Positions 2,628 through 53,274 of a stretch of 64,000 bases of DNA are shown here, piece after piece. The DNA is from an uncultured Verrucomicrobiales bacterium. Its GTDB lineage: Bacteria > Verrucomicrobiota > Verrucomicrobiia > JADLBR01. Position 1 is the first letter of the stretch, and every line of letters starts with the position of its first letter. The notes under the pieces were generated by a model. It saw only the letters and a list, made by a program, of their open reading frames with translations, was not told the DNA's origin and made no database searches. The stretch lies in contig CAZYWZ010000014.1 in the NCBI GenBank assembly GCA_964651705.1, forward strand, positions 9,743-73,742, read 5' to 3'. A program made the position numbers and the translations under genes.

Positions 2628-3518
2628 ATGGAATTCTTGAATTACCATCATCTGCGGTATTTCTGGGTCGCGGCCAAAGAGGGCGGGCTAACCCGCGCCG
2701 CCGCCAAGCTGCACGTCTCGCAGCCGAGCATCTGCACGCAGATCCAGGCCCTCGAGGGCTCGCTGGGCGAAAAATTGTTGCGGCGGACATCGCGCGGCCT
2801 GGCCCTGACCGAGGCTGGCCAGACGGTGTTCAGCTTTGCCGAGGGGATCTTCTCCCTCGGCGAGGATCTCCTGAGCACCATGAAGCAGCGCCCCACCACG
2901 CGTCCCTTGCGCGTCCACATCGGCATCGCCGATTCGGTGCCGAAGCTTCTCACCTACGGGATGCTCAAGCCGATTTTCCGCCTCCCCCAATCCGTCCAAG
3001 CTTCCTGCCGTGAGGGAAAAGTGCCCGACCTGCTCGCCCAGCTGGCGACCTATCGCCTCGATATCGTGCTGTCGGACGAGCCGGCGCCCGCCTCGGGAAA
3101 CCTCAAGACGTTCAACCATCTCTTGGTGGAATGCGGCGTCTCCTTCTGCGCCGAACCGAAACTGGCGGCTCGCCTCAGGCGCCGCTTTCCCGCCTCCCTG
3201 CATGACGCCCCGGCGCTGTTGCCCAGCGCGAGCGCGGCCCTGAGACGGTCATTGGAAAAATGGTTTCAGGAGCATCGGATTTCACCCCGCCTGATTGCGG
3301 AGTTTGACGATGCCGCCCTGATGAAAGTGGCCGCCTCCGATGGCCTGGGGTTTTTCGCGGTTCCCAGCCTGGTTGCCAACGAGGCGGTGACCCGCTACGG
3401 CCTCAAAATCATCGGGCACGCCCCCCGTTGCAGCCAGAAGTTCTATGCCATCAGCGCGGAGCGGCGGCTCACCCACCCGGCGGTGGTGGCCATCACGGCC
3501 CATGCGCAGGACGGATAG
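2628..3518 (+). CDS. nhaR: LysR-family transcriptional regulator, NhaR-like
   Basis: N-terminal HTH MEFLNYHHLRYFWVAAKEGGLTRAAAKLHVSQPS aligns to NhaR NYNHLYYFW. C-terminal EFDDAALMKVAA and YAISAERRLTHPAV match NhaR EFDDAALMKAFG / HAIFAERMIQHPAV. Confidence 0.8.
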   Translation: MEFLNYHHLRYFWVAAKEGGLTRAAAKLHVSQPSICTQIQALEGSLGEKLLRRTSRGLALTEAGQTVFSFAEGIFSLGEDLLSTMKQRPTTRPLRVHIGIADSVPKLLTYGMLKPIFRLPQSVQASCREGKVPDLLAQLATYRLDIVLSDEPAPASGNLKTFNHLLVECGVSFCAEPKLAARLRRRFPASLHDAPALLPSASAALRRSLEKWFQEHRISPRLIAEFDDAALMKVAASDGLGFFAVPSLVANEAVTRYGLKIIGHAPRCSQKFYAISAERRLTHPAVVAITAHAQDG

Positions 3519-4501: not shown

Positions 4502-6628
4502 CTACTCAGTTCTTCTGCTTCTGATCTCGTACATGCGGTATCCGACCTCGCGGATGCCGGCTATGGTCTCGGGGTAGGGGGTGTCACAGACGTCCAGGAA
4601 TCCGTTCTGGAGGTTCTCGCCGTCGAAGCGGCCGGTGGTGGGCTGCTCGCCGAATTGGTGCCAGTGGGCGCCGATGATGTTCGGGTGGCGGAGGGCCGAG
4701 GCGATGTAGGTCGCGTAGGCCCTGCCCCGCGCCTCCTGATTTTCGACTTGGATGAGGCTGGGGTGGAACATGCCGCGGTCGAGCGCGCCGAAGTGGAACT
4801 CGCCGATCATGACCGGCTTGTCCACGCCCTCGGGCAATTTGAAATCATCGAGCGTATGGCGGTACAAATTGTAGCTGATGACGTCGCAGTATTTCGCGCC
4901 GATCTGGACGGCGGCCTTCGTCGAGCCCGCGAAGCGGCAACCCATGTACAGCGTGTTGGGCGCGGCGGCCTTGAACTCGTCGCGGATGTTCTTGAAGTAC
5001 GCCTCGGTCACGGCGGCGCTGAATTCGACGCAGTCCCCCTTGGACCCCGGCGGCGGCTTCTCCTGCGATGCGAGGAGCGCTTCCCAGTCGGCGTGGAGCG
5101 ATCCCCACGCCGCGTTGAGCTTGTCGACCGCGCCGTACTTGTCCTTCAGCCGGTTGACGAATTCGATCTTCGCGGGCTGGGCCGCGGGCGATGCAAGCGT
5201 CCACTCGGCCAGCGAGGTCTCGCCGCCCCAGCTGATCTCGTTGTCGACGAAGAACCCGAAGCACCATGGGTCGTCGAGTTCCTCCTTGCGGGCCAGCAGT
5301 TGCTTTCGGAGGTTCGCGCGGAACTCGGGGTGGAAGGGATCCTTGAACTTCCACCAGCCGAGGTGGGCGCCCTCGATGTCCGGGGATCGCATCTCGAATC
5401 GGTCGCAATAGGGGGTGCGGCGCTGGAGGCAGATGGCCTTGTCGGAGCTGTTGGCGATGGTGTTCATGCCCCAGCTCCTCAGGCGCCTGTGGGCCATGTC
5501 GGCGTAGCGCGCGATCCAATCGGGGCCGTATTTGCGGAAGGCGTTCGCCGACGAGAAATCGTAGGTCCGCTGGATCCCGCGGGCCTCGTAGTAGGGCCAC
5601 AGGAGCGCGTCGCGGGTCGTGTAGAACATGGCGAATGGGGAGTCCGGCGACGGGAGGTCGGTGAAATAAAATTCTCGTTCGTCCAAGGGTGTCACGGCCG
5701 AAGACGAGGTGACGCGCACCGGGCCGTGCGACCACCAGAGGCAACCCTCGGGATCCACCATCCACCATTTGCCATCGATCTTCTCGACGCGGAAGCGGCC
5801 GGTCGCCTCCCGCTTCGGTCCCTTGGCCCAGCCGCCATATTTGTTCCACCCGTCCGGGCCGGGATGCGAGGCGAGGTCGGCGCGCTCGGCGTCGATGGCC
5901 CTCTTCAGATCCTCGTCCGAGTGCGTCTTGCCGGGCCATTCATTATGCTTGAACTGTCCGTACACATCGATGAATGGGAAGAACTCGTCGGCCGAGAGTC
6001 GCATCCACGCAGGCACTTCCGGCCACCGGTAGCCGCCGAGGTAAGGAGGCGGATTCGGCTCGGTGTGCGCCACGATCCGCTTCACGCCCCAGAGCCAGTC
6101 CAGCTTGGGCTCCTTGATATAGACCGCCACGCCGACGACCTCTGCCGGATCGAGGTCGGCGACGACCCCGGTGGTGGCGAATGGCCCGCGCTTCATTCCC
6201 GCCAGTTTGCTCGTGATCTCTCGGCCATGGGGCAACGGGGGTGGGAGCGCGATGGTGTAGCCCGCAGGAGTCTTGCCCCGGATCTTCACCCGATCGATGA
6301 AGACGCCCAGGGACTTCCCGGGATCCGCGTCGGGATTGTCGAGGCGAATCGTCAGGGGCAACTCGCCCTTCCTGTCTAGGTTCGCCAGTTCGAGCGTGAG
6401 GCGGTTGCACCGGGACAGATCCCATGATCCCCGGATGATCACGCCGGGGTAGCCGGTGTCTCCCTTGGTCGCGACCTCCAGCAGGCCGTCCTGCAAATCG
6501 AATTTTCCGCCCGAGTGCGACGCCACCGACGCGATGGGGGTTTGCGCGGCATCGAAGAGCACGATCTCATCGGCCTGCGCGGTTCCCGCAGCCAAGAGCA
6601 GCACCATCCAGCAGTTCGTTTCTTTCAT
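4502..6628 (-). CDS. secreted clan GH-A (TIM-barrel) glycoside hydrolase, GH50/GH42-like, with N-terminal beta-sandwich domain
   Basis: Signal peptide MKETNCWMVLLLAAGTAQA. FFVDNEISWGG (NE acid/base-like) and VMIGEFHFG (nucleophile-like) motifs. 708 aa. Confidence 0.6.
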   Translation of the reverse strand: MKETNCWMVLLLAAGTAQADEIVLFDAAQTPIASVASHSGGKFDLQDGLLEVATKGDTGYPGVIIRGSWDLSRCNRLTLELANLDRKGELPLTIRLDNPDADPGKSLGVFIDRVKIRGKTPAGYTIALPPPLPHGREITSKLAGMKRGPFATTGVVADLDPAEVVGVAVYIKEPKLDWLWGVKRIVAHTEPNPPPYLGGYRWPEVPAWMRLSADEFFPFIDVYGQFKHNEWPGKTHSDEDLKRAIDAERADLASHPGPDGWNKYGGWAKGPKREATGRFRVEKIDGKWWMVDPEGCLWWSHGPVRVTSSSAVTPLDEREFYFTDLPSPDSPFAMFYTTRDALLWPYYEARGIQRTYDFSSANAFRKYGPDWIARYADMAHRRLRSWGMNTIANSSDKAICLQRRTPYCDRFEMRSPDIEGAHLGWWKFKDPFHPEFRANLRKQLLARKEELDDPWCFGFFVDNEISWGGETSLAEWTLASPAAQPAKIEFVNRLKDKYGAVDKLNAAWGSLHADWEALLASQEKPPPGSKGDCVEFSAAVTEAYFKNIRDEFKAAAPNTLYMGCRFAGSTKAAVQIGAKYCDVISYNLYRHTLDDFKLPEGVDKPVMIGEFHFGALDRGMFHPSLIQVENQEARGRAYATYIASALRHPNIIGAHWHQFGEQPTTGRFDGENLQNGFLDVCDTPYPETIAGIREVGYRMYEIRSRRTE

Positions 6629-6669: not shown

Positions 6670-8946
6670 CTACGGCGCCTCCAGCGGCGGCGGGGGATGC
6701 ACCGGGTGGGCCGCCGGCCAGGTGGCGCGGGACTCGTTTTGGCGCAACCCGATCTGCTCGAAAGGGATTCTCTCGAACCCGATATTCCAGGCGGGCGAGT
6801 CCCCCCGAAGCTGGAAGTTGCCGGCCTTTTCATTGACGAACCTGGGGTCCACATCGACCAGGTTGTCTTCCAGTCGCACCAGATCGAGGACCTTCGCTTC
6901 GATGTGTTGCCACCACGTCGCTTCGATGGGTTTGCCTTGAGACATGCGGCGCAGATACTCGCCCTGTCCCTGCCAGAAGATGTTGCGGCGAACGATGTTG
7001 CCTTTGGGCTTTGCGGGCTCATCGTCCAGCATCGTCGCAAGCTTCGGATAACGCGTGCTGAAAGGTGGCTCTTTGAAGCGAACGCCGCAAAGCTCCCCTG
7101 TCTCTCGGGCCGTCTTGAGTCGCGGCTCCACGGCATACGCCGCCCAGCCCAAGGCGCGCGCATCCAGATGAAAGGCCCGCGGGCAATCCACGAAGACGTT
7201 GTTTTCGACGAGATTATCACGCCCTCCGCCGATAAAGACCGCCTGCATGACCTGAGAAAAGACATTGTTTCGCACCGTGGCGCCGGAAAACTCGTCGTCC
7301 AGATAGATGCCCCTGCACCAGCCGCCATCCTTGCCGCTGATATGGTGCAGGTAGTTGTATTGAAATACGTTGCCGCGCAAGCACCAGCTGCGCCCGGCGT
7401 AGATCGCGCCGCAGTCGTGCGATTCATTGCAGACATTGTGGATCTCGTTGTATTCAAACAGATGCTCCTGGCCGCCGAACAGGATTGCGGCGTGGGGGGC
7501 GTCGTGGATCAGGTTGTGTGACGCGCGGAGGCCCACGCCGCTCATGAAAATCCCCGGCCGATACATTCGATCCCAGCGGCCATAGTGATGGATGTGGTTG
7601 TTCTCGGCAAAATGGCCGCCCGGCTCGAGCGTCTTTCTGTCGCCTCCGATGAGGTAGATCCCGCCGCCGCCCATGCCGTGCATGTCGCAGCCGACGACAC
7701 CGTTCTCCTTGCCTTCGAAGATGGTGACGGCGTGGTTGCCCAGATTGCGGAACGTGCAGGCGACAAGGCGGCATCGTTGGCCGCCGGTAATGGTGATTGC
7801 CGTCCCGCGCGCGGCCTCCATCAGCAGGCCGTGAATCGTGACGTGCGACGCGTCTGTCATCGTGAAGAGGCCCGGCGCCATCGAGACCTCGACCCGCGCG
7901 CGTTCGATGGGCCCCGGAGGCCAGAGGTAGAGGATTCCCGCCGCGCGGTCGATATACCATTCGCCGGGCGCGTCGATTTCGCAGAGGAGATTGAATCCGC
8001 GGAACCACTGGCCCTTCCGGTAGCCGTAATAGTGGTACGGTGGCTCGACGGAGATGATCCGCTTCTCTGGATCGATGGATGCGATCTTGTGGCGCTGTGT
8101 GGCCCAGTCGCGGAACCAGTATCCGCGGACCCACGCGTCCTTCTCGCCCAGCCACCGCCTGGGCCGGTCGCCCTCGTAGACGAACACACCCTCCTTGCAG
8201 CCCTTGGTGCCACGGACATCGATCTCCGTCTTGCCCAGCACCTCTTGAATCTTGATGAAGTCGTCGTTCGGCCAGCGCGACAGCGTCATCGGCTGGTCGT
8301 TGAAGAAGACCTCCAGTCGCGGCTTGACTGTCTTGCCCGCACTGGCGTGTGCGCTCCCAATCATGTCCTCGGCCTGATTGTCGACCTTTGCCAGCCACAA
8401 CTGGAGCTCCGCCGCGGCGTCCAGGCCGAGGTCGCCATATTCTGTCACGCCCAGCGCGCGCAGATCGGCTTGAAACACCTTGCCGCGCGCAGGCGGATCC
8501 AGACGGCTGAGGGTGGCTGGCTCGGTGACGGGGCTCCATCCACCCACGATTCGCCCTCCACTGATGTGGACCGCGTCGCCCCGTCTCGCGCGATAGATGA
8601 TGGGGGAGTCAGCGGTTCCGGAATCTTCCGCAGTCAGTGCGACGGGCTTCGAGAGCTCATATCTGCCGGCCAGAATCTCCACGACGATGCCGCCTCTCGG
8701 CAGGCCGCCATTCGCCTTGATCCGGCGGATTTCATCGCGGGCGCGCTCGATCGTGGCGAACGGCCCGTCGGTCTTTCCGGTGTTCGGTTCCGCCGCATTG
8801 CCGGACCACGCGTCGTCGCCATCCGCGGCCACGTAAATGATCGCGCCTGGATGTTCCTCGGGCGCCGCATCTCGGTCGGCGGGCGCACAGGCGGCGATCG
8901 CCGCCAGCAGGGTTGCAGACAATGCCGTTCGCAGATCGTCCCTCAT
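6670..8946 (-). CDS. secreted right-handed parallel beta-helix repeat protein (pectin-lyase fold), putative polysaccharide lyase/hydrolase
   Basis: Lipoprotein-like signal (LLAAIAAC). Repeated NxxxHD/NN[VI]F beta-helix turns. Paralog of 23856-26252 with shared blocks NHIHHYG/NHIHHLG and HDAPHAAILFGG/HDAPYSGIIGGG. Confidence 0.65.
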   Translation of the reverse strand: MRDDLRTALSATLLAAIAACAPADRDAAPEEHPGAIIYVAADGDDAWSGNAAEPNTGKTDGPFATIERARDEIRRIKANGGLPRGGIVVEILAGRYELSKPVALTAEDSGTADSPIIYRARRGDAVHISGGRIVGGWSPVTEPATLSRLDPPARGKVFQADLRALGVTEYGDLGLDAAAELQLWLAKVDNQAEDMIGSAHASAGKTVKPRLEVFFNDQPMTLSRWPNDDFIKIQEVLGKTEIDVRGTKGCKEGVFVYEGDRPRRWLGEKDAWVRGYWFRDWATQRHKIASIDPEKRIISVEPPYHYYGYRKGQWFRGFNLLCEIDAPGEWYIDRAAGILYLWPPGPIERARVEVSMAPGLFTMTDASHVTIHGLLMEAARGTAITITGGQRCRLVACTFRNLGNHAVTIFEGKENGVVGCDMHGMGGGGIYLIGGDRKTLEPGGHFAENNHIHHYGRWDRMYRPGIFMSGVGLRASHNLIHDAPHAAILFGGQEHLFEYNEIHNVCNESHDCGAIYAGRSWCLRGNVFQYNYLHHISGKDGGWCRGIYLDDEFSGATVRNNVFSQVMQAVFIGGGRDNLVENNVFVDCPRAFHLDARALGWAAYAVEPRLKTARETGELCGVRFKEPPFSTRYPKLATMLDDEPAKPKGNIVRRNIFWQGQGEYLRRMSQGKPIEATWWQHIEAKVLDLVRLEDNLVDVDPRFVNEKAGNFQLRGDSPAWNIGFERIPFEQIGLRQNESRATWPAAHPVHPPPPLEAP

Positions 8947-8971: not shown

Positions 8972-11200
8972 TCATGATCCGTCGTGAGTAGGGCGCGGTG
9001 GTCTCCGCTTCCAGATGACCAGCCGGACGCTCTGGGCGGGAAGGGCGGCTAACGCCTCGACGTCTCCATGTTCCGGATCCGACGCGGACACCAGGTCGGC
9101 ATCGGGCGCGCTCAGCGAAAACGGCGCTGCCTTTTCGCCGGGGTTCCAGACCAATACCGCGAGCCGGTCGCCTGCCGCGAAACCTTTGGCGACGAGTCCC
9201 TCGCCGCGGAAGGCAAAACCTTCTTCGTCAACGAATCGCCCGTGCCAGAGCAGGTCGGCGTTGGCGCGCTGGAATTCGATCATCTGCCTGAGGTATCGGG
9301 TCGCCTCTTCCGGGGGGACGGATTGCATCAGCGCGATGTTGGGTTTGCTGATGACCTCGGCGTATTCCTCGGCATCGGGCACGATGTCTTCCCTCAGATA
9401 GCGCACGTCCGGCGCATAGCGCGACTCGATCTCGAAGCGGAAGCCGTAGGCGCACGTGTAGTTGGCCATCGCGCGACCCATCATCGGGGTGGGCATCCGG
9501 ATCGTGCTCATCGCCTCGGGGAACGTGTACCGGAACATCTCGGGGAATGCCGGTGCGGCGGAGGCGCCGCTGAGGCGCGTCAGGATCTCTCCCGGCGACG
9601 CCTCGAAGGTGCCAAAGGTGCAGCCGTGGAACATCGCGATCGAATCCAGGACGCTGTCGTGCAGCCCTTCGGTCATCACGATGAAGTCGGGATCGATCGC
9701 CCGCATGTGGTCCGCGATCCTCCGTATGAAGCGGACCCGGTCGGACGCGTAGACCATCGATGGGACGGGGTGCCCATGCCCCTGGGCGTAGCACGGCATC
9801 GGTTCGTAGATGCCGAGCTGGTCGTAGAGAATGCCGTCGGCCCCGAGGTCATCGGCCTGGACGGCAAGCTCCAGCATGCGGTCATACCATCCCTGTGTCA
9901 TCAGGCAGCCGAGGCCGAAATGGCGCGGGGGCGCGTTCCGGTATTTGTGGTAAGTCAATTGCGTGGGCGCACCATCGCGCCCGATGACGGTCAGGTCCTT
10001 GCCGCGCGTCTCCCAGAATTCCGTCCCGATCTCCTGGAGTTGGCCGTTTGCGTACAGGATCGTTTTCTTGCCACGATGTCGCGCCTCCTTGAGCGCCTTG
10101 CGGAGCGCGTCCGCACCGCCCATCTCGGGGTCGGGTATGTAGTCGGGGTAGAGGTGGTCGTGGCCGCCGTGGGCCCAGCCGAACAGCCCGAGGATATCAA
10201 GGCCTCTTGCGTCGGCCACATCACAGAGTTTCCCCAACGAGTGGTAGTCCCAGAGAACCTCGCCGTTCTGCTGCTTGAGAATGCAGAGCAGCCAGCCCGA
10301 GGCGTCCCGGGCCCAGGCCGGCGGATCGATCGGTCGCGCGACCGTGTCGGCCCAGGCGCGGTAGTGACGGGCCGCCGCGTGCCACGTCCCCTCGTAGGGC
10401 AATATCAAGGTCGGCGGCAGAGACCAGCGCCCGCCTGTCGGGCAGAAGATCTGGTGTTTCAGCGCCATGCCAAAGGTGTTGTCCGACGGGTCGTGGCGAA
10501 CACGGAGCGATTTTGCGCTGTGCGTCGCGTCGTGGCAGCCCAGATAGAGGCCGCCCTGTTTTCCGGCGAACGCGCACCACTGCATGGTCCCGCGGCGGCT
10601 GGGGTAGTCGGCCGAGATTTCGAAACCGCGACCCCACGCTTTCCAGGGCGCAGTTTTGCCCGCGGTGGGCGCGCGATCGAGCCGGCGACCGAATCCCTCG
10701 GGCAATAGCACGGGGTGCGCGGCCAGATCGGCCTGGATGCCATGGAGCACCGGCCCGGTGAAGCCGCAGACGACCCACCCTTTCTCGTCATTTCGGATTT
10801 CTCCCGTGATCTCGAACGCGTCGCCAGTGGGGCGGATGTCGATCGTGACCCCGATGTCCCATGTCCTCTTCCCGTCGCCGAGCGTGCCGCAGGTCAATCG
10901 GATGCCCTCCGCCATCGCGGCGCGCGTCACGGGTTGCCCCTGGTCCGTCAGGACGATCGGTTCGGCCCCCACGGGGGGTGGGGTATCTGGCTGGACCAGC
11001 ACCGCCCACAGCGGGTCGCCCTTGGCCCGGATGGCGGGGCACGCGGCGATCGCGGGCGCGAGGCCGATGCCTTGGGCATCGGCCTGGAGTTCGCCCTTCG
11101 GCCCCTTGACCCGGATCGCCTCTCCACCCTCGGTGGGCATCGACAACAGAAACCATCCCAATCCCACCACCATAGCTGTGTTTTTCGCGATCATTTGCAT
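8972..11200 (-). CDS. secreted hypothetical protein, possible glycoside-hydrolase-like TIM barrel
   Basis: 742 aa, signal peptide MQMIAKNTAMVVGLGWFLLS. Consistent codon usage within the operon. No family recognised with certainty. Confidence 0.5.
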   Translation of the reverse strand: MQMIAKNTAMVVGLGWFLLSMPTEGGEAIRVKGPKGELQADAQGIGLAPAIAACPAIRAKGDPLWAVLVQPDTPPPVGAEPIVLTDQGQPVTRAAMAEGIRLTCGTLGDGKRTWDIGVTIDIRPTGDAFEITGEIRNDEKGWVVCGFTGPVLHGIQADLAAHPVLLPEGFGRRLDRAPTAGKTAPWKAWGRGFEISADYPSRRGTMQWCAFAGKQGGLYLGCHDATHSAKSLRVRHDPSDNTFGMALKHQIFCPTGGRWSLPPTLILPYEGTWHAAARHYRAWADTVARPIDPPAWARDASGWLLCILKQQNGEVLWDYHSLGKLCDVADARGLDILGLFGWAHGGHDHLYPDYIPDPEMGGADALRKALKEARHRGKKTILYANGQLQEIGTEFWETRGKDLTVIGRDGAPTQLTYHKYRNAPPRHFGLGCLMTQGWYDRMLELAVQADDLGADGILYDQLGIYEPMPCYAQGHGHPVPSMVYASDRVRFIRRIADHMRAIDPDFIVMTEGLHDSVLDSIAMFHGCTFGTFEASPGEILTRLSGASAAPAFPEMFRYTFPEAMSTIRMPTPMMGRAMANYTCAYGFRFEIESRYAPDVRYLREDIVPDAEEYAEVISKPNIALMQSVPPEEATRYLRQMIEFQRANADLLWHGRFVDEEGFAFRGEGLVAKGFAAGDRLAVLVWNPGEKAAPFSLSAPDADLVSASDPEHGDVEALAALPAQSVRLVIWKRRPPRPTHDGS

Positions 11201-16834: not shown

Positions 16835-19297
16835 TCAGAACAGCAGCCACTCGGGCGAAGCCAGGAGGCCGACATCGGGGTGGTGTTCAGGAGGCGGCAC
16901 CCAGAACTTCTTGTTCCATGCGCCCGCGGGGTTCTTCCAGTCGCCAAAGAGGGGTGCCACCGAGGTCCATGTCGTGATTTTCAGTGTGGCCTTCTTGCCC
17001 TTGGCTTCCGGCGGCACGGCCCATTCGAATGGGGCCCAGGCGCGCTCGCCCAAGGCCCTGCCATCCAGTTCGACGGCCGTGTATAGCCCGCCCGTTTCGA
17101 GCCGCAGCCGGACGTCGCCGCCGTGGGCCGGAACCGCGACCTCGGTCTCGTAACTCACGGTGCCCGCGAAATCGGCCAACCCCTGCTTCCACAGCGCGCC
17201 CGGACCAACCCGCCCTGGAAGCGCCGTGACGGCGTCGCCCTCGACGGCGAAGTCTCCCGCTAGCCAGGCAACCGGGAGGAAGTAGTTGGTGTCGCCACCG
17301 CCCGATGCGATGCTGAAGGCGTGCTCGCCCGCCGCCAGACGGAAGGGGGCGGATTGGAGGTAAAGCTCGTTGAGGCCCTGGCGCAGCGAGTCGCAGGGAT
17401 GTTTTGCCGTCAGGGGGTTCCCGTCCATGGCCACGACGTTCGGTCCCGGGTGATTGCGCACGACGAGGCGGGCGGCCGCGATCGGATGTTCGACGTCGAT
17501 CCGGGCCACGCCGTTCGTCCCAAAGGCCAGCCGGAGCGTGTTGCGCGCGCCGAGCGCGATCCCAAAGGACGCGCCCTCCGCCACCGGACGGATCGCCCTG
17601 GGCGTGGTCGGCACCGATCCCTCGCCATCGAACAGGAACACGCCGCGGGCCGGCAAATCGAAAGGGATGGGTTCCTTGCCGCGGCGCATCAGTCGCATCC
17701 GTCCGTGCTTCCTTGCCGTGAGTCCGAGCACGGCGACAGCGCCATCCTCGTATTGCCGAAGCAGGAGGTTCTCATCTGCCCCGCCGTCGGCCGTCTCGAC
17801 CCGCGCCTCTGGCGGAGCAATCGTCTTGGCGAATGCGGCGGCCTCATCGGGCGAGGGAAAGACGCGGCCGGATGTCTCCTCCTTCAAAGTCGTGCCATCG
17901 AAGCCGAACACCAGCGGCTTATCGCAAGGCTCGTCTTCTTCGTAGAGGTCGTAGGTGAGCTGGTGCGCAGAAAAGCGACGGAGCGTGGCGAGGAGGGCGG
18001 GATGCGTCTTGCGTTGGGCCGCCAGGCGCGCGGCCTCGCGCTGCGGGTAGCGGATCGCGATGTTGCACCGGGCCCGTTTGTTCGCGTAGCGCGCGGCCGT
18101 CCGCGCCTCGGCGCCCAGCAGGCGGAACGCGGGGAACCAGGGCTGCATTCGGGTGAGGGGGTTGAAGTAGCCGGCCTTCTCGACATTGCCCCGGGCGTCG
18201 AGGGGCGCGATCGCCAGCACGTAGCGGTCCACCTGGTGCATCGCGCACAGCCAGATCATCTGGCGCTGCGTGGCGTGTGTCATGTCGCTCGGGCCCAGCG
18301 CGAAGAGTTCGGCCAAACCCCCGTTCCCCCGCCGCCCGATCGCGTGCTGCGCCACCGCGAGGGTGAGCCACTCGATCGTTTCCGGGTCCAGGCGCGTCCC
18401 GATCTCATCGATGCCGGGGAGCGTCAGGCCCGTCAGCGCGTGGAGCGGATCGCCGTTGTAGAGGGCGGAGTTGCGCGTGTCGTTTTCGGAGATCATGTGC
18501 CCCGTCGCGAGGACGCCCGCGCGCTCGCACCACGCGCGGATCGGATCGAAGTAGGCCTTGCGGAAGCGTGCCCCGAGCAAGCCATAGTACGCGGCCCAGA
18601 CATCGTCCCGGGCGGGGTCGTCGAGATACGCCTGGATGTCCCGGCGCAGGTCGTGGCCCGTGGCGGCCCGGTATTCGTCCTCCGCGCCATCGAAATGGCG
18701 GAACACCAGGGACGGTTTGCCTTCGGGCTTTACCGGCACGGGGTGCGCGGGCTCGTCGGTAAAGATCCCGACGACGGTCGATCCCAGATAGGGGCCGAGG
18801 CGGCGCTCGTATTCCTTGTGGGTCAGCTCGATGAACCGCCCCATGGCCTTGAAGCTGTAGTTGTCTACCCAGCCGGGGGAGTGAACGACCTTCCAGTCGA
18901 ACGAGCCGTCGGCCCGCTTATAGACCGCGAACTCGCGGGACTCGAAATCCGGGCTCTCCGCGGGCACGCGGCCCTTGCAGGAACCGCTGGGCCAGTTGTA
19001 CTCGTCGTAGAGCCAGATCGCCATGTCCAGCCGTTGGGCGTGCTTGCAGAACCACTCGCACAGCTGGAGCCACTCCTCGCCCATGTACTCCAGTTCCAGT
19101 CCGCTCCGCGCGTAGATCAGGTATTGGTCGATCCCCACGGCCTTGTAGGCCTCGAGGGTCTCCCGGACGGTCGCCTCGTCGGGCCTTCCCGTGATGGCGC
19201 CCATCGGGATCAGCGGGCACCGCGGCTCGGCCGCCGTCGTTGCGAGGGCCCAGCCAGTCGCCAGCACAAACCATGTTGCCGTCGTCTTCATTCTCAT
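16835..19297 (-). CDS. secreted putative glycoside hydrolase with C-terminal GH2-type sugar-binding-like jelly-roll
   Basis: Signal MRMKTTATWFVLATGWALATTAA. 820 aa. ATGA overlap with the downstream gene at 19294-19297. The ORF-track N-terminal extension to 19555 is Arg-rich and rejected. Confidence 0.55.
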   Translation of the reverse strand: MRMKTTATWFVLATGWALATTAAEPRCPLIPMGAITGRPDEATVRETLEAYKAVGIDQYLIYARSGLELEYMGEEWLQLCEWFCKHAQRLDMAIWLYDEYNWPSGSCKGRVPAESPDFESREFAVYKRADGSFDWKVVHSPGWVDNYSFKAMGRFIELTHKEYERRLGPYLGSTVVGIFTDEPAHPVPVKPEGKPSLVFRHFDGAEDEYRAATGHDLRRDIQAYLDDPARDDVWAAYYGLLGARFRKAYFDPIRAWCERAGVLATGHMISENDTRNSALYNGDPLHALTGLTLPGIDEIGTRLDPETIEWLTLAVAQHAIGRRGNGGLAELFALGPSDMTHATQRQMIWLCAMHQVDRYVLAIAPLDARGNVEKAGYFNPLTRMQPWFPAFRLLGAEARTAARYANKRARCNIAIRYPQREAARLAAQRKTHPALLATLRRFSAHQLTYDLYEEDEPCDKPLVFGFDGTTLKEETSGRVFPSPDEAAAFAKTIAPPEARVETADGGADENLLLRQYEDGAVAVLGLTARKHGRMRLMRRGKEPIPFDLPARGVFLFDGEGSVPTTPRAIRPVAEGASFGIALGARNTLRLAFGTNGVARIDVEHPIAAARLVVRNHPGPNVVAMDGNPLTAKHPCDSLRQGLNELYLQSAPFRLAAGEHAFSIASGGGDTNYFLPVAWLAGDFAVEGDAVTALPGRVGPGALWKQGLADFAGTVSYETEVAVPAHGGDVRLRLETGGLYTAVELDGRALGERAWAPFEWAVPPEAKGKKATLKITTWTSVAPLFGDWKNPAGAWNKKFWVPPPEHHPDVGLLASPEWLLF

Positions 19298-20496
19298 TTG
19301 TCGCCGACGAGAACTTTGCGGAGCGCTTCGATCCTGGCGGCACCTTCCCCGTCTGGCGGCGGCAGGGCCGGCGCTAGCCAGCCGCCCTCGTCGAACTCGT
19401 TCCACGCGTAGATCAGCACCAGCTCGGCGCCGTCCGGCCCCGGATGCTTCTTGAACCACTCGACGCCGCGCCCGACGTGGGCCGCGATTTCCTGCGGGGT
19501 GCCCCGCCGGTAATAATACTGGTCGGCATCCGGCTTCAGGTGGAACGACTCCCATGAGACGGGGTTCATCACGCGGGTCCGACGGTCCCAGCCGGTCATG
19601 CAGATGGGGACCGCCGGCGTGCCCGTCTCCTCGCAGGATGCCCAGAATGCCTCCGCGTGCGCCGCCAGATCGGCGAACGGTGCCGCCTTCGCCCTTCCGT
19701 CCGACTTGGCGTAGGCGCTGAGCGCATCACCCCCGAACATGTCGCAGTACCTCTTCGCGGCCTTTGGCGAACCATCGCAGAATACCAGGTAGGGTTTTCC
19801 GAGGCCGCACGCCGCGACCTCGTTCGCAAAGGATGGCCAGGGGCCGGCGAGGACCTTGTTCGCCAGGGCGTCGTTGAAGAACCCCATGAACAAGACCGGC
19901 CGGTTTCCCCGCACCTTCAGGTAATTCGGTTCCCTGACCACGCGCAGCAGGTGCGCCCAATAGGCGCGCTCCGCGCCCTCGTCCGGCAGCCGTCCGTACG
20001 CCGGCCACATCGGCACGAAGAGCGAGAAGCGGATCTTGTCGCGGTTCCTGCACGCGAGGAACGTCTTCAGCGTGTAACTCAGCGGCGAGGCCTCAGGATA
20101 GGCGGTGAACGCCCAATAGTCCAATCCCCCGTGGACGGCATGCTCGATCTCCCGCTCGATGATCTCGGGGCGGTCGCCGTTGAAGGATTGGGCCGTTCCG
20201 TCCGCGTTTAGCGTCGTGAAGAACGGCCAGCGGTAGCGCCACGGTTCGGCGGCCAGCGATCGCTGCGTCTCCCTGCCCGGATCCTGACTCACCTTTCGGT
20301 TGCGGGTGGGATCGAATCCGGGAAACTCGACCGAGGCCGGTGGCCGTGCCGATGCGGGCAGCGTCCCATACCACGCGTCCCATCGGATGGCGCCGACCAG
20401 GGGCCGCGCCTCGTTGGTCTTTTCTGCGGCGCAAAGCGCGAAGGGCACCATTGGGTTGAGCCCCAGCACGAGGATCAGTGTCTTTGCGGCATTCAT
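19294..20496 (-). CDS. secreted (beta/alpha)8 glycosidase candidate, GH99/GH71-like, paralog of 21900-23033
   Basis: Signal MNAAKTLILVLGLN. Conserved C-terminal IYAWNEFDEGGWL (E-x-x-E) shared with the paralog (IYAWNEIGEGGWL). Confidence 0.5.
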   Translation of the reverse strand: MNAAKTLILVLGLNPMVPFALCAAEKTNEARPLVGAIRWDAWYGTLPASARPPASVEFPGFDPTRNRKVSQDPGRETQRSLAAEPWRYRWPFFTTLNADGTAQSFNGDRPEIIEREIEHAVHGGLDYWAFTAYPEASPLSYTLKTFLACRNRDKIRFSLFVPMWPAYGRLPDEGAERAYWAHLLRVVREPNYLKVRGNRPVLFMGFFNDALANKVLAGPWPSFANEVAACGLGKPYLVFCDGSPKAAKRYCDMFGGDALSAYAKSDGRAKAAPFADLAAHAEAFWASCEETGTPAVPICMTGWDRRTRVMNPVSWESFHLKPDADQYYYRRGTPQEIAAHVGRGVEWFKKHPGPDGAELVLIYAWNEFDEGGWLAPALPPPDGEGAARIEALRKVLVGDK

Positions 20497-20515
20497 CGTG
20501 CGGCCCGCCTTCGGT

Positions 20516-21874
20516 CTAGGGATGCGCGGCGGGCGTGATCGCGTAGGCGTGCGGGATCGGGGCGCGGCTGGCCAGCGCCTCTTTCTCAAGGGCGGCCACC
20601 TGTTTGAGAAGTTCGCCGTACTGCGACCACTTCTTGATATAGGTGAGCGCCGAGGCCGCGCTGTATTCCGTCTTGTCTTTGAAACTGTCGTAGTGCGCCT
20701 GCACCGCGGCCGGATCGTCGGGATCGATCTTGTAGTGGCTCTGCATCCAGCGGCGCGTGTTCATCAGCCGGCAGGCCTGTGCCTCCGCATCCCGCCGCTG
20801 GGCGTTGAATCGGGCGACTGCCTTCGCCTGTTTGAACTGCGGCGTCGCCTCCTTGAGGGCGAGATTGATCCCGCCCTCCAACTCGCTCGCGGAGTGGCGA
20901 CCCACCACCGCTCCATCGATCTTCAGCTCGTAGGTGCCGGCCGTCAGGCCTCGGACCGATAGGATCTCCTGATTGAGATCTCTCTCGATTGGCAGCAGTT
21001 CGAGCGCCATCTTGGCCGCTGGGTCGACAGGAAACGGCAGCGCCTTCGCCAGCACCGTGAACGTGATGCCCCCGTCCTTCTTCGCCACGGATATGACCTC
21101 GGCGTTGGCGCAGCCTGCCGCGGCATCCAACGCGACTTTGGAGACGACGGGCGGCGCGCCCTGTGCCTTCAGAAACAGCCATGCCATCATCAGGTGTCCC
21201 GGCGCGCCCGGATGCACGCGGTCGGCCCCGACGATGGTCCACCCCGGGTCCTTCTTCTGTCGTTCCAGGTTGAGCGTCGTCATCGGCCCGTGGAAATCCA
21301 CGACCGTGCCGTTGTTACTTGCGGCCAGTTCTCGCACGAACTCCGCGCAGCGGCCCAGGCCGTCGTTGCAGCCGGGCTGGTTGTTGTCTTTGTCGAGTTG
21401 CACGGTCTGGTCGAACGGCGACGGCGTGATGAAGAACAGCTTCGGATCGCCGGCTTCGGTCCGGATGCGGCTGACGACGGTGGCCATGTTCGTCCTGTAG
21501 CTGTTGATGGCGTTCTCCTGGATTGCCCTCTTCTTGTCGTCCGGATTGGCGATATACGATCCGCGGCTCACGTCGTTCATGCCAAACATGATCGTGACTG
21601 CGGTCGGTCGCTTCTCGATGACATCCTCCTGCAAGCGCTTCAGCGACCCGCCCGCCGTATCGCCGGGACGTCCCGCGTTGACGAATCGGATCGTCCGATC
21701 GGGAAAGCGCGTCAGGTAATAGTCGGAGATCATGGTCTGATAGCTTCCGGCGGCGGTGATGCTGTCCCCGAGGAGCACCACCGTCTCGCCGTCCTTGAAC
21801 ATCTCGGCGGGCGCGGTGGTTCCGGGCATCCACGCGCCGATCAGAAGGGCCGCCGCCTTTATGGATATCTTCAT
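20516..21874 (-). CDS. SGNH/GDSL hydrolase (carbohydrate esterase) with C-terminal extension
   Basis: Block I LLGDSIT, block III FGMND, block V DRVHP. Signal peptide MKISIKAAALLIGAWMP. Confidence 0.75.
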   Translation of the reverse strand: MKISIKAAALLIGAWMPGTTAPAEMFKDGETVVLLGDSITAAGSYQTMISDYYLTRFPDRTIRFVNAGRPGDTAGGSLKRLQEDVIEKRPTAVTIMFGMNDVSRGSYIANPDDKKRAIQENAINSYRTNMATVVSRIRTEAGDPKLFFITPSPFDQTVQLDKDNNQPGCNDGLGRCAEFVRELAASNNGTVVDFHGPMTTLNLERQKKDPGWTIVGADRVHPGAPGHLMMAWLFLKAQGAPPVVSKVALDAAAGCANAEVISVAKKDGGITFTVLAKALPFPVDPAAKMALELLPIERDLNQEILSVRGLTAGTYELKIDGAVVGRHSASELEGGINLALKEATPQFKQAKAVARFNAQRRDAEAQACRLMNTRRWMQSHYKIDPDDPAAVQAHYDSFKDKTEYSAASALTYIKKWSQYGELLKQVAALEKEALASRAPIPHAYAITPAAHP

Positions 21875-21899: not shown

Positions 21900-23033
21900 T
21901 CACTTGCCAAGCACGGCCCGCCGGATCGCCTTGAGGTATGCACCGTCGGGGTCGTCCTTGCAGGGCACGAGCCAGCCGCCCTCGCCGATCTCGTTCCACG
22001 CGTAGATCAGCGCGAGCCGGTCCTTCGTGGTCTGGCTCGGGTTCGCGTCCATCCAGTCCGCCATCTGGATCATGTAGCGCTCGAGCTCCTCCGGCGTGCC
22101 CCGGGCAAAATGGGGGGAGACGCCAGAACCTTGCCCCAGTCCTTCCCCGTTCTTGGCCTCCCAGGGGCGCCGGTCCCAGCCTTGGGTTGCCACCGGGATG
22201 TAGGGTAGGGGCGGTCGGTCGGTGCGATGCCACACGGACACGTTCCAATCCACGAGCAACTTAAACGGGTAGATGTCCTCTAGGTTGAGGCCTTCGCGCG
22301 GCTTGGTGTTGTAGGCGGTCACGATCTGATATCCCTCTTCGGCCGTGACGTTGCCGCAGCCCGCCGCCCACACGCCCGGAAAGCCGGCCTTCTTGGCCGC
22401 CTCCTGGAGGTAGGCTAGCCCGGCCTTGTCGGCGCCCTTGGGCGAGAAGATCATGATCACGGGCCTGCCCTCGGACCGCAGGTAGCGGGGATGCTTGAAA
22501 TAGTTCGCGATCCAGTAGTCGGCGGCCTGCCGCCATGCGTCCGGGCCCACGATTTCGGCACCGCGGTGATTCGCGACCAGCAGGGAAAACTCCATCCGGT
22601 CATTGTTCTTCGCTCCCATGAATAGGCGCATCGGCAGATGCTTCGAGTCCTCCTCGATGCCGCCGACATTGATGGGCGCCTTATTGTCGTGCCAATACCA
22701 GCAGAACGAGAAGTGCGCGATGCCGTGGTCCGCGGCCAACGCGATCTGGCGCTCCATCAGCTCGGGGGTATCGTCGCGCCATCCCCAGACCGGCGTGCGG
22801 CCCGAGAACTCGGTCGCCAGTTTCTTGGTGAAATGGGTCGGCATTCCGCGGGCCCACGCGTTTGAGACGGAGCCGTCGTCGTAGGGGCTCTTGCCCGACC
22901 AGCCGGCGAAATAGTAGGCGCCCAGTTTCATCCGGGGCTTTGTCCCCGGCGGTTCGGCGCCCCATGTTTGTGCCGACAGGACCAGGAACGCGGCCCACAG
23001 GATCGCCTGGGTGTGATTCATGGTGCATTTCAT
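21900..23033 (-). CDS. secreted (beta/alpha)8 glycosidase candidate, GH99/GH71-like, paralog of 19294-20496
   Basis: Signal MKCTMNHTQAILWAAFLVLSAQTWG. C-terminal LALIYAWNEIGEGGWLVP. The ORF-track start at 23342 is rejected as an Arg-rich extension. Confidence 0.5.
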   Translation of the reverse strand: MKCTMNHTQAILWAAFLVLSAQTWGAEPPGTKPRMKLGAYYFAGWSGKSPYDDGSVSNAWARGMPTHFTKKLATEFSGRTPVWGWRDDTPELMERQIALAADHGIAHFSFCWYWHDNKAPINVGGIEEDSKHLPMRLFMGAKNNDRMEFSLLVANHRGAEIVGPDAWRQAADYWIANYFKHPRYLRSEGRPVIMIFSPKGADKAGLAYLQEAAKKAGFPGVWAAGCGNVTAEEGYQIVTAYNTKPREGLNLEDIYPFKLLVDWNVSVWHRTDRPPLPYIPVATQGWDRRPWEAKNGEGLGQGSGVSPHFARGTPEELERYMIQMADWMDANPSQTTKDRLALIYAWNEIGEGGWLVPCKDDPDGAYLKAIRRAVLGK

Positions 23034-23061
23034 CGGGGTGCTCCTTCGGGTGTGTTGCATT

Positions 23062-23778
23062 TCATCTCTCGTCCTTCCGTTGTTTCCGGTTGGCGATGCC
23101 TTCCAGAATCGCGTTCGCGATGGCCCGCATCCCCGTATCGCCAGGATGCGCGGCGACGCCCTTGTGCGAAAAATCGCGCTCGGCGCGGGCATAGTTGGCC
23201 TCGTCTTTGGCGAGCGCGCCGATATCGACGAACGTGCCCCCGACCTCCTGGCAGGCCATTTTGAGCGCCTCGTCCTTCGCGGGATTCGCCCAGAAGCAAC
23301 TGCGCACGACGATGGTTGGCTTGCGGTTTGCGGTGATCGCATGCAGGAGTTTTACCACCGCTTGACCGAACTGTGCCTTGGATGCCGCATCGGTCGGCGC
23401 CGCCGCGTTTTCGCCGATCGCCAGGATGATCAGATCCGAGTTAAAGGCGGCGGCGTCCTCCAGTTGTGCGGCCGCGTCATATGTGGTGTATTCTCGCTCG
23501 AACGCCGCGATGTTCTTGACCAGCGTCTCCGGATCGGGGCCGCCTTTCTGCGTCAATCCCCGGGTGACGAGATGCACGTAGTCCTTGTCCTCCGAGCTGG
23601 CGGCCATGCCCCAGTTCCCGGACCAGCCGATATCCTGCTTGGGGGCGTGACGGGTGATGCTGTTACCGAGGAAGAGGATCTTCCGAAACGCGGGCGGCTC
23701 TTTTGGGGGCGCCTGGTCCGCCGCGGCCGCGGCGAGCGCCGATGCGATCACGAGCGCCGTCGTCGATATGTATCTCAT
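23062..23778 (-). CDS. SGNH/GDSL hydrolase (acetyl-esterase-like)
   Basis: FLGNSIT block I and a GDxGM-like catalytic block. 238 aa with signal peptide. Confidence 0.75.
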   Translation of the reverse strand: MRYISTTALVIASALAAAAADQAPPKEPPAFRKILFLGNSITRHAPKQDIGWSGNWGMAASSEDKDYVHLVTRGLTQKGGPDPETLVKNIAAFEREYTTYDAAAQLEDAAAFNSDLIILAIGENAAAPTDAASKAQFGQAVVKLLHAITANRKPTIVVRSCFWANPAKDEALKMACQEVGGTFVDIGALAKDEANYARAERDFSHKGVAAHPGDTGMRAIANAILEGIANRKQRKDER

Positions 23779-23855: not shown

Positions 23856-26252
23856 TCACTTCAACTCGATCATCCCGGCCTCATCGAGCCTCCAATTTTC
23901 CCCAAGCGTCCCCTCCCAGCAGTGCCATTCGCCGAACTCGCTATAGAAGGCGGCCATGTTGAAAGCGGCCCGGCGGTCTGTTGCCGGATTCAGGCCGAGG
24001 GCGGCGAACGGGATGGCCCATTCGCCGCGCCAGCCCTTGCCGAAGAGGCCGCCGGGGCCGGGGATGGACCCGGCGGCGAACCGCGTCGCCTTGCCCACTC
24101 GCTCGGCGGCGTCGGCGGGCGCGCCGGCATCCGTGCCGCTCTGGAGCGCGCCGCACGGGTAACCGCGCACGATAAACGTCGCGGGTTTCCCGTCGGGGGT
24201 CTTTCCCGCGATGCAGATCTCGACGCCGTCGTCCTTGCCCCAGACCGAGTTGGTGCTGACCTTGGCGGGGCCAAACATGGTGACGTTGGCGGCCACGTAG
24301 AGGCAGGTGTCGTCGTACGCAAACTTCGCCATGGCGGGAGCGCCACCGACGCTGAAGCGGGATGGTTCCCGGTCCAGCGTCTGGAGTTTCCCCGGCCATT
24401 CGCCAGTCTTCATCTCGCCGTCGATCGCCGGCGCGGCATCCGCGCGCTCGGCCACGGCGGGGCCCTTCTTGCGCGCCGGCGTGGGTTCTGGCGGCATCGC
24501 GTCGCTGATGGTGAATGGCTCTGGCGCGCCATTCGTTTTGCCGCCGTAGTAGATCACGTTGTTCTTCCATGCGCGGATGCCGTTCGCCTGGCGGACGTTG
24601 AGCTTGCCTGGCACGAACAGCGTATTGCCCTCGAAGGTGCAGCCCACGGATCGCTGGAACGAGACCGTCATGTCGCCATCGGCGATGAAGACGTTGTCGC
24701 GCACGGTGATGTTGCGCGTGATGTGATTGTGGGTGGGCATCGGAACCCCCACGGCCACGTTGCGCTCTATGACGCAGTCCCGAGCGCCCTCGTCGAGGTA
24801 GTAGGCCGAGGCCCCGAAACCGCTGCCCGCCTGCACGACATCCCGGACGACGTTTCCCCGGATGGTGCAGGCATTCATGTTGCCGTAGATCGCCGCGCCG
24901 TCATGCATCTCGCGCATCACGCGGTAGATCAGGTTCTCCTCGATGAGGTTGCCCGTGGATCCGCCCCCGCCGATGATCCCGGAGTAGGGCGCGTCGTGGA
25001 TCTCGTTTCGGAGGATGCGCAGCCTGTTTCCGGTGAGCATGGACGCGGCGGCGCCGGGGTAGTACACGCCCAGGTGATGGATGTGGTTCCGGGCGATGAG
25101 CGTCTCCTCGCCCTGGATCTTTGCGCCGCACGCGCCGATGTGATGGATCCGGCAGCCGGTGAGGCGGCAGTTGAAAAGCTGATCCCCCCGGAAGCCGACG
25201 CCGCCGACGTTGCGGATCTCGAGATCCTCGAACGCGCAGTTCTTTCCGGAGACCACGTGGATGGCGCCGTCGAATGCGGTGGCGCCGAAGCTCGCGGGCT
25301 TGAGCGGCGCGGTGGTCGCCTGCACGCCCAGGCCGCGAATCGTCATGCCCTCGACGGGTTTGTCGCGAGAGCCGGTGATGCCGATGACCCTTTGGGTGGC
25401 TGGCGCGACGATCTTGATCTTGGCCATGTCCTCGCCCTGGAGCGGCCAATAGACGAGGCGGCCGGCCGTGCGGTCGAGGTACCACTGGCCCGGGCGGGTC
25501 ATTCCCTCACGCGTGTTGTAGATCACGTACTTCCTCCGGTTCAAGGCCCCGGGTGGCCAGGCGGGCTCGGAGGAGAGGATCAGCGCGTGCCGTTGGAGAT
25601 CGTTGCTGGAGACCCCGACGAGCGATTCGGCCCACATGTGGTACAGGCGGACCTCGGCGTTTCTCACGTCGAGCGTGGGCGGGATGTCCTTTGGGTCGTA
25701 GGGCATCGTGGTGAGTTCCTCGTGCGTCGGCTTGCGCTCCCAATGTCCCGCTACGGCGGGCAGGAGGGGCAGGTTCCAGGTGCCTAGGTTCTCGAACGCG
25801 TTGGTCGCCGGGAAGCGGGCGCGCTCGGCGAGTCGGCCGTCGACGACCAGGGCGCGAAAATCCCATGTCCCCTCCTTGACGCCGGGCAAGTCCGCGCACC
25901 ACAGGGCGCCGCCGCAGCGCTTCCAGCCCGTCACGCGGCGGCCACCGTACAGCGTGGCGCCGTTGGTGGTCGCCGACTCGATGGTCAGGCCGTTGTCGCG
26001 GGCGTCGAACTCGACGGGCCGATGAAGGAAATACTCGCCTGGCATCACGGCGATGCGATGGGGTCCCGTGCCGGCCTTCCTCGCCGCATCGCGCGCCGCC
26101 TCCAGCGTCGCGAACGGTTGCTGCTCGGTTCCGGCGTTCGTGTCGTCGCCCCCGGGGGCGACATGGAAGGTGGCGGAATCCGCCGGCTCAATGAAGGCCA
26201 GCGCGACGGCGGCCAAGATCGCCGCATGGTTGGTGTGGATCGCCTGATTCAT
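23856..26252 (-). CDS. secreted right-handed parallel beta-helix repeat protein with C-terminal extra domain, paralog of 6670-8946
   Basis: Start MNQAIHTNHAAILAAVALAF at 26252 overlaps the upstream stop (ATGA, 26249-26252). Beta-helix repeats RNHIHHLG, NEIHDAPYSG, NLIEENLIY. The ORF-track N-terminal 337 codons (to 27263) are rejected. Confidence 0.65.
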   Translation of the reverse strand: MNQAIHTNHAAILAAVALAFIEPADSATFHVAPGGDDTNAGTEQQPFATLEAARDAARKAGTGPHRIAVMPGEYFLHRPVEFDARDNGLTIESATTNGATLYGGRRVTGWKRCGGALWCADLPGVKEGTWDFRALVVDGRLAERARFPATNAFENLGTWNLPLLPAVAGHWERKPTHEELTTMPYDPKDIPPTLDVRNAEVRLYHMWAESLVGVSSNDLQRHALILSSEPAWPPGALNRRKYVIYNTREGMTRPGQWYLDRTAGRLVYWPLQGEDMAKIKIVAPATQRVIGITGSRDKPVEGMTIRGLGVQATTAPLKPASFGATAFDGAIHVVSGKNCAFEDLEIRNVGGVGFRGDQLFNCRLTGCRIHHIGACGAKIQGEETLIARNHIHHLGVYYPGAAASMLTGNRLRILRNEIHDAPYSGIIGGGGSTGNLIEENLIYRVMREMHDGAAIYGNMNACTIRGNVVRDVVQAGSGFGASAYYLDEGARDCVIERNVAVGVPMPTHNHITRNITVRDNVFIADGDMTVSFQRSVGCTFEGNTLFVPGKLNVRQANGIRAWKNNVIYYGGKTNGAPEPFTISDAMPPEPTPARKKGPAVAERADAAPAIDGEMKTGEWPGKLQTLDREPSRFSVGGAPAMAKFAYDDTCLYVAANVTMFGPAKVSTNSVWGKDDGVEICIAGKTPDGKPATFIVRGYPCGALQSGTDAGAPADAAERVGKATRFAAGSIPGPGGLFGKGWRGEWAIPFAALGLNPATDRRAAFNMAAFYSEFGEWHCWEGTLGENWRLDEAGMIELK

Positions 26253-28351: not shown

Positions 28352-28421
28352 CGGATCCACGGTCGGACGACCGCGGTTGCGATCTGGAGTGTTCGTGCGG
28401 CATCCCTCGGATACTTTCGGG

Positions 28422-29816: not shown

Positions 29817-29822
29817 AGCCGC
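29804..29822 (-). terminator. hairpin GGCGGCTGtgtcAGCCGCC downstream of the SDR gene (no U-tract)
   Basis: 7-bp perfect stem between the SDR stop and the MFS start. GC-rich organisms often lack a poly-U tail. Confidence 0.25.
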
Positions 29823-29851
29823 CCTACAAACATAGCATGCGCTTTCATCGC

Positions 29852-30628: not shown

Positions 30629-30695
30629 GCTGAATCGAAACTTCTGGGTGTAGCCACGGTCGTGAGACCGTGGACGTGCTGGCCGAGCGCCCGGA

Positions 30696-30720
30696 CCCAT
30701 CTGTTACCAGATGGGCTACA
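30696..30720. repeat. hairpin motif CCCATCTGttacCAGATGGGCTACA, family R5, copy 1
   Basis: 8-bp perfect stem and 4-nt loop. Also at 36800-36824 and 38528-38551 in the same orientation, each upstream of a minus-strand gene start. Confidence 0.7.
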
Positions 30721-30737
30721 TTCTTGATCGCCTAGAA

Positions 30738-31919: not shown

Positions 31920-31931
31920 GGGAGATTATTG

Positions 31932-32002
31932 AACCACGGATGGACACGGATGGGCGCGGATGGCGCGGCGGAATTGGTGTCCATCGGAGTCCATTCGTGG
32001 TT
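31932..32002. promoter_or_regulatory. candidate operator: three CGGATGG direct repeats at 10-bp spacing plus inverted copies (dyad AACCACGGATGGAC / GTCCATTCGTGGTT)
   Basis: Lies 15-85 nt upstream of the dgoD/manD start, the first gene of the 27-kb operon. The 10-bp periodicity puts repeats on one helix face. Confidence 0.35.
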
Positions 32003-32092
32003 GAGGGTGGGCCCGTGCCACCCGGAGGCCAACTGGCAAATTGCGTCAGTGATTTGCGAAACTGCGACATCCCGCGCCGCGGGGCCGGCGCC

Positions 32093-32150
32093 CGTAACGC
32101 GGACACTCCTGTCCGCGATCCATGGGCGGACAGGAGTGTCCGCCCTACGG
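32093..32150 (+). repeat. REP doublet, family R2 (GCGGACActccTGTCCGC / GCGGACAggagTGTCCGC), left
   Basis: Two 7-bp-stem hairpins in inverted orientation. Repeated at 32945-33039 (three hairpin units). The two sites flank RAYT 2. Confidence 0.8.
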
Positions 32151-32255
32151 CATTTGGGCTTGCCGGGTCGGGAGGGATTCGCGATAGGGTTCTCTCCGGG
32201 TATGGAGAAGGGTCGGGGAAATTCGTATCCTTTTGAATTCAAGGCTCGGGATGGG

Positions 32256-33039: not shown

Positions 33040-33071
33040 TATGGCTATTGCGGGCGCGTTTGGCGGTTGGC

Positions 33072-53268: not shown

Positions 53269-53274
53269 CCCTGG

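Follow-up and report, generated by a model that had tools for sequence, protein, structure and literature searches.

The founder of glycoside hydrolase (GH) family 141 is BT1002 from Bacteroides thetaiotaomicron (PDB 5MQP), which acts on rhamnogalacturonan-II chain A and depends on two essential aspartates, the putative nucleophile D523 and the acid/base D564 (PMC10154630, PMC5593877, PMC12786026). The family accommodates several specificities at about 20% identity while keeping the aspartate pair, as seen in the endo-xylanase Xyn141E from Acetivibrio thermocellus and the endo-fucanases Wf141_1/2/4 from Wenyingzhuangia fucanilytica (PMC5593877, PMC12786026); Xyn141E retains it at only 20.7% identity to BT1002 (PMC10154630, PMC5593877, PMC12786026). 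Here we describe two proteins, A and B, encoded in a 64,000-nucleotide stretch (hereafter the window) of contig CAZYWZ010000014.1 from an uncultured Verrucomicrobiales bacterium. With a probability of roughly 0.8, A and B are GH141-type β-helix glycosidases with both catalytic aspartates intact, that is, members of a known enzyme design.

Both open reading frames (ORFs) were verified on the minus strand, where a sequence-only reading of this DNA had placed them, with A at 6670-8946 (758 aa) and B at 23856-26252 (798 aa). An AAGGAG Shine-Dalgarno sequence lies 6 nt 5' of the ATG of A. The mechanical ORF of B extends to 27263, but the orthologues of B are 790-810 aa long, so the extra length is spurious, a product of the 66% G+C content; these lengths, together with the ATGA in which the B start codon overlaps the stop of the preceding DUF5696 gene, favour 26252 as the start.

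Similarity of A and B to each other and to GH141

A and B are homologous, secreted, right-handed β-helix proteins and anciently diverged paralogues, as the sequence-only reading had supposed in calling them paralogous and secreted. BLASTP aligns them at 27% identity across 350 aa (E = 4e-21) with an additional N-terminal segment at 34%, and their family profiles align with 99.95% probability over 459 columns (E = 1.2e-38; hhalign). Pfam detects Beta_helix in both, and the predicted models are right-handed β-helices with a mean predicted local distance difference test score (pLDDT) of 88.9 for A and 85.0 for B. No third paralogue is present in the 64-kb window.

B is directly linked to GH141. 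It passes the Pfam GH141_M model (34.2 bits; cut-off 27), and its best match among all PDB sequences is BT1002, with E = 3e-22 by phmmer and 1.5e-30 with a 30-sequence profile. The B family aligns with BT1002 orthologues at 99.8% over 452 columns (hhalign), pairing D451 with D523 and D487 with D564. BT1002 numbering was verified on a 619-aa orthologue (Q336, KHMY-D523 and YT-D564). The glutamate that follows the second aspartate is common to B (D487-E488) and BT1002 (D-E), and both D451 and D487 are invariant in 30/30 family sequences. Thus, the proposal that A and B found a new lyase or hydrolase family on a novel catalytic scaffold does not hold: a confident match to a characterized GH family with conserved catalytic residues, the outcome that the sequence-only reading had itself named as its refutation, is what was found for B.

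A reaches the same aspartates by way of B, as the A-B profile alignment pairs A D511 with B D451 and A D550 with B D487. Both residues of A are invariant in 30/30 family sequences and in 78/78 species-level genomes, whose proteins range from 49 to 90% identity. Among PDB sequences, A matches 9RX2 best (E = 4.5e-47; profile 1.3e-61) and 5MQP next (1.8e-8; profile 9e-15). Since 9RX2 is also matched by the B profile (E = 2.2e-29), all four proteins (A, B, 9RX2 and BT1002) are linked in a single group.

Structural comparison agrees with the sequence matches. Foldseek places 5MQP at the top for both models (E ~ 2.5e-23, template modelling (TM) score 0.64-0.67), ten orders of magnitude before GH120, in a fold library without 9RX2. 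The models contain the elements that define the GH141 fold and are found in BT1002, namely a right-handed parallel β-helix, an N-terminal cap and an inserted β-sandwich (GH141_M, PF21231). B therefore shows every GH141 property tested (similarity to BT1002, fold and aspartate pair), and A shows the fold and, via B, the aspartate pair, with a weaker sequence link to BT1002.

There are also differences from the characterized enzymes. BT1002 is only 17-23% identical to A and B, it lacks NHIHH and has CEVPY in place of their HDAP[HY], it carries neither a CBM9 module nor a lipobox, and its host phylum and gene context differ. At the position of its active-site Q336, B has an Asp, whereas A lacks the Q336-bearing loop altogether. 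The D-G after the first aspartate and the x-R-x-D-x type of second motif published for Xyn141E and Wf141 resemble B and 9RX2 (PMC5593877, PMC12786026); the substrates of these enzymes, xylan and sulfated fucan, are not suggested by the gene content around A and B.

9RX2 (717 aa, 'Parallel beta-helix repeat protein') is a full-length homologue of A, aligning in five stretches over residues 12-731. As aligned, it shares NNIHHVG, NLIHD, NEIHNV and both aspartate positions with A, and its N terminus (..LIIGC..) resembles a lipobox, so that it is apparently a lipoprotein like A, although its sequence is of a low-GC type and from another lineage. No publication on 9RX2 was found in the literature searched, including GH141 papers from 2025 on; as far as that literature shows, a solved structure of the A-type clade exists and is still undescribed.

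The second-best structural relative is the GH120 β-xylosidase XylC (3VST), which resembles A and B in its β-helix, its inserted domain and its N-terminal cap. GH120 membership was rejected since the closest similarity of A and B is not to XylC-type β-xylosidases. Membership in GH28 or polysaccharide lyase (PL) families PL1, PL9 and PL6 was likewise rejected: at E ≤ 1, neither Pfam nor NCBIfam gave a match to these families for A or B except PelN (15.6 bits, cut-off 740), and structural matches to families of this type span the generic helix only. The earlier exclusion of GH28, PL1 and PL9 was therefore sound. NCBIfam held no useful model for either protein.

Several observations weigh against the GH141 assignment, chiefly for A. 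The direct sequence match of A to BT1002 is confined to the N-terminal part of A; alignment of A with BT1002 orthologues (hhalign, 98.5%, 360 columns) ends at A residue 445, ahead of the catalytic coils; and GH141_M matches A only weakly, on residues 291-343 (14.7 bits, under the cut-off of 27). The catalytic assignment in A is accordingly transitive, via B. The early end of the alignment may reflect a shallow reference profile, as a search with BT1002 rebuilt from alignment output gave only near-identical Bacteroides orthologues. Furthermore, the stereochemical mechanism of GH141 is not experimentally established (PMC10154630), and the substrate of A and B is deduced solely from weakly annotated neighbouring genes; the nearest sulfatases lie >25 kb beyond the end of their gene cluster, which contains no fucosidase.

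The same properties of A would fit an arrangement in which A, 9RX2 and thousands of relatives constitute a separate sister family of GH141 whose active site is composed differently, leaving only B as a true GH141 member. Besides the low GH141_M score and the truncated alignment, the phmmer and profile matches of A to BT1002 cover only the N-terminal ~100 residues, the loop of B aligned with Q336 is missing from A, and the clade of A is both very large, with 4,386 clusters at 50% identity (E ≤ 1e-30), and marked by invariant residues of its own (H453, H477, H485, H503, H534, C506, C544 and D551). Nevertheless, we consider such a separation unlikely, because the A-B profile alignment continues through the catalytic coils at 99.95%, 9RX2 matches the B profile, and accepted GH141 members are themselves only ~21% identical to one another, with CAZy GH141 spanning 36 CUPP branches (PMC5593877, PMC12786026). 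Much less probable is that one or both proteins are lyases or epimerases (PL6-, PL9- or AlgE-like). The numerous conserved histidines, a weak similarity of the N-terminal cap to the PL9 rhamnogalacturonan lyase 5OLQ (E = 0.045) and faint precomputed Pel9A-like_beta_helix Pfam matches in relatives point in that direction, but these matches cover only ~300 residues of common helix and rank under GH141, both GH141 aspartates are invariant, no PL model in Pfam or NCBIfam is significant, and the gene cluster contains no uronate-catabolism genes. That A and B are non-catalytic binding or adhesin proteins like NosD or PfbA is hardly credible: the two aspartates and their neighbouring residues are fully invariant across relatives of 49-90% identity, both genes sit amid glycosidase and esterase genes, and NosD scores 18 bits against a cut-off of 300.

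As GH141-type enzymes, A and B would each cleave a glycosidic bond by carboxylate acid/base catalysis, with the two invariant aspartates on adjacent coils (D511 and D550 in A, D451 and D487 in B) as the presumed catalytic pair. A would be lipid-anchored via Cys20, and B would be soluble, with a CBM9-like module for glycan binding. They most likely act on different linkages of one complex glycan, probably acetylated and galactose-containing. The earlier suggestion of two specificities on one scaffold is reasonable and probably correct, because the region aligned to BT1002 Q336 differs between them, with an Asp in B and no loop in A.

These results correct a tempting mis-call. GH141 enzymes look novel from sequence alone because the public name 'right-handed parallel beta-helix repeat-containing protein' is also given to true BT1002 orthologues, which share the Pfam set of the B family; members of the A and B groups likewise carry only generic β-helix repeat names. 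Although the practical value is modest and current understanding is not contradicted, candidate catalytic residues can now be assigned to two very large, uncharacterized GH141-type clades of Planctomycetes-Verrucomicrobia-Chlamydiae (PVC) bacteria.

Architecture, the histidine ladder and the age of the split

Protein A (6670-8946, -), a predicted lipoprotein of the 9RX2-like clade, begins with a signal peptide and lipobox (residues 1-20; 8887-8946, -), read directly from the sequence MRDDLRTALSATLLAAIAAC, in which an n-region and h-region precede a match to the pattern [LVI][ASTVI][GAS]C. The lipobox reported earlier for one of the two proteins is thus this IAAC with Cys20; it is kept in the two closest relatives of A, yet in only about one-third of the family. 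The N-terminal cap and first coils follow (residues ~33-135; 8542-8850, -), containing YVA..GDD..PFATIERARD and representing the portion of A most like BT1002 and 9RX2. A domain inserted between cap and helix (residues ~136-345; 7912-8541, -) leads into the catalytic right-handed β-helix (residues ~346-600; 7147-7911, -). There, the Asp511 codon (7414-7416, -) specifies the counterpart of D523, and the codons for Asp550-Asp551 (7294-7299, -) specify the counterpart of D564 and a neighbour that is also conserved in 78/78 genomes.

Protein B (23856-26252, -) combines a GH141 glycoside hydrolase with a CBM9-like module at its C terminus. A probable Sec signal peptide (residues 1-26; 26175-26252, -) precedes the GH141 insertion domain (PF21231; residues 115-270; 25443-25910, -) and the catalytic β-helix (residues ~271-570; 24543-25442, -), which includes NHIHHLG (389-395) and HDAPYSGIIGG (419-429). 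The codons for Asp451 (24900-24902, -) and Asp487-Glu488 (24789-24794, -) lie within it. The extra C-terminal domain noted earlier is present, though at ~200-230 aa (residues ~570/600-798) it is shorter than the ~250 aa estimated. Its CBM9-like β-sandwich (residues ~600-798; 23859-24455, -) has the same fold as the CBM9 of Thermotoga maritima Xyn10A (1I82; TM 0.74, 21% identity, E = 1.2e-7) and as a second CBM9-fold match, 7NWO (TM 0.69). Pfam CBM9_1 itself scores below cut-off (15 bits versus 23.4, E = 0.023), and a few B orthologues have a precomputed PF06452 match.

The histidine-rich signature that the sequence-only reading described as common to both proteins is shared in part. NHIHH[YL]G occurs in both (A 450-456, B 389-395), as does HDAP[HY]; however, the full HDAP[HY]..I.GG pattern is exact only in B, whereas A has HDAPHAAILFGG, in which the spacing to GG is one residue longer. 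NN[VI]F and NLxENN (NNVF and NLVENN) are confined to A, at positions 560, 582 and 578. In A, NHIHH (450), NLIHD (478), NEIHN (500) and NYLHH (531) occupy equivalent short strands of four consecutive coils (residues 450-536; 7339-7599, -), so the signature is one repeated strand, N-x-[IL]-H-x, and not a separate catalytic motif. The repeat yields an asparagine ladder and a stacked row of histidines (H453, H481, H503 and H534), conserved in 64-78 of the 78 genomes, which leads into the coils bearing D511 and D550. The first two rungs are present in B, and 9RX2 carries NNIHH, NLIHD and NEIHN, whereas the aligned positions of BT1002 read NEICE, NLIHH and NCVHS. The ladder is a clade-level elaboration of the GH141 helix with a probable role in lining the substrate groove. 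Reading the motif as a metal site was rejected, its support being limited to conservation.

The two proteins were previously thought to stem from duplication within one operon, which is misleading. A and B belong to separate orthologous groups that span Verrucomicrobiota, Kiritimatiellota, Lentisphaerota and Planctomycetota, with 57-90% identity inside each group compared with 27% between A and B, which rules out a recent duplication in the operon. Because each paralogue has such orthologues across phyla, either the split is older than these lineages or the pair was spread by transfer. The closest genome for A is a Verrucomicrobiia metagenome-assembled genome (90% identity), and 561 stretches encoding A-type proteins were confirmed in species-level genomes. 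Cultured bacteria with A-type genes include Oligosphaera ethanolica DSM 24202 and Desulfogranum japonicum DSM 18378. On the Kiritimatiellia contig Ga0116247_10000187 (locus L004, 10001-14703), the orthologues of B (73% identity) and A (68%) are neighbours that overlap by 4 bp; next come genes for a GH71-like protein, an esterase and DUF6259. Of 43 genome loci that cover at least 17 kb around an A orthologue, four have a true B orthologue within 10 kb, and seven more have another distant GH141-like paralogue.

Gene cluster and possible substrate

A and B belong to a 15-gene, co-directional cluster (4502-31919, -) that encodes, in 27 kb, about nine other putative glycosidases. It contains, in order, GH50-like, A, DUF6259, GH65/GH95-like, GH129-like and a 906-aa protein without annotation, then two WbsX-like proteins, two SGNH/GDSL esterases, B, DUF5696, a major facilitator superfamily (MFS) transporter, a short-chain dehydrogenase/reductase (SDR) and a galactonate-dehydratase-like enzyme. 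Where gene starts are clear, intergenic gaps run from -16 to +77 nt, a spacing that makes it plausible that A and B are in one operon; a promoter and terminator scan gave no signal above background. A divergent gene (32973-34262, +) encodes a periplasmic-binding-protein domain with an AraC helix-turn-helix and, from its position, is a candidate regulator of the cluster. The ~1-kb gap separating the two holds a weak IS200/Y1-transposase-like match (~32613-32790, +, within the mechanical ORF 30711-32918) at E = 8.5e-5, just at the Pfam cut-off.

The first gene (4502-6628, -; 708 aa) has a weak GH42 match in Pfam, yet its product is a clear homologue of GH50 β-agarase (4BQ2 Aga50D, E = 1e-79), unexpected in an apparently freshwater or groundwater Verrucomicrobiia genome. 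DUF6259 (8972-11200, -) adjoins A and is found again close to orthologues of A and B in loci from Kiritimatiellia and Verrucomicrobiia, and DUF5696 (26249-28432, -) adjoins B. The 906-aa ORF (16835-19555, -) has no match in Pfam, NCBIfam or PDB sequences; homologues with ~71% identity are located near A orthologues in three other genomes, and the ORF may encode a glycan-active protein not yet described. The WbsX-like pair (PF14307, 'glycosyltransferase'; 19294-20589, - and 21900-23342, -) recurs beside A orthologues at 6-9 of 79 loci. Its members are more likely hydrolases here than transferases; their mechanical ORFs overlap neighbouring ones and the true starts are uncertain. PDB sequence searches returned nothing for DUF6259, the 906-aa protein or the WbsX-like protein at 21900-23342, and a literature search on DUF6259, DUF5696 and WbsX gave unrelated matches only.

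The end of the cluster (28422-31919, -) encodes an MFS protein like D-galactonate transporters, the SDR and an enolase-superfamily enzyme that scores 351 bits against the NCBIfam galactonate dehydratase cut-off of 311. In another Verrucomicrobiia contig (L001), this SDR and MR_MLE pair is found immediately upstream of the A orthologue. Agar catabolism also employs an MR_MLE enzyme, the 3,6-anhydro-L-galactonate cycloisomerase. Parts of the cluster gene set recur in related loci, among them a fusion of A with a GDSL domain.

From this gene content, the cluster might degrade an acetylated, probably galactose-containing heteroglycan stepwise, with oxidative catabolism of the released sugar. It is possible, although we hold the idea only tentatively, that the A-type clade (A, 9RX2 and >4,000 clusters at 50% identity), with its invariant four-histidine ladder and D-D dyad, is a functionally new branch and perhaps a family of its own, which together with B and the recurrent set of DUF6259, WbsX-like, DUF5696 and 906-aa proteins may degrade a glycan lacking a known pathway; such a pathway would be common among PVC bacteria from freshwater, groundwater and anaerobic reactors. 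A conserved cluster so rich in domains of unknown function would be a reasonable target for enzyme discovery.

Other genes of the window

A second glycan-related gene set lies at 46614-63193. It encodes an F5/8-type-C protein (1044 aa), a DUF5703_N and Laminin_G_3 protein (963 aa), two sulfatases (56520-57992 and 61538-63193), a ceramidase-like protein and a GH32 protein (59056-61767); the last three mechanical ORFs of this set overlap and their starts are uncertain. At the other end of the window, a DUF4914 protein (179-2125, -) with a full-length Pfam match of 1036 bits adjoins a LysR regulator (2628-3518, +).

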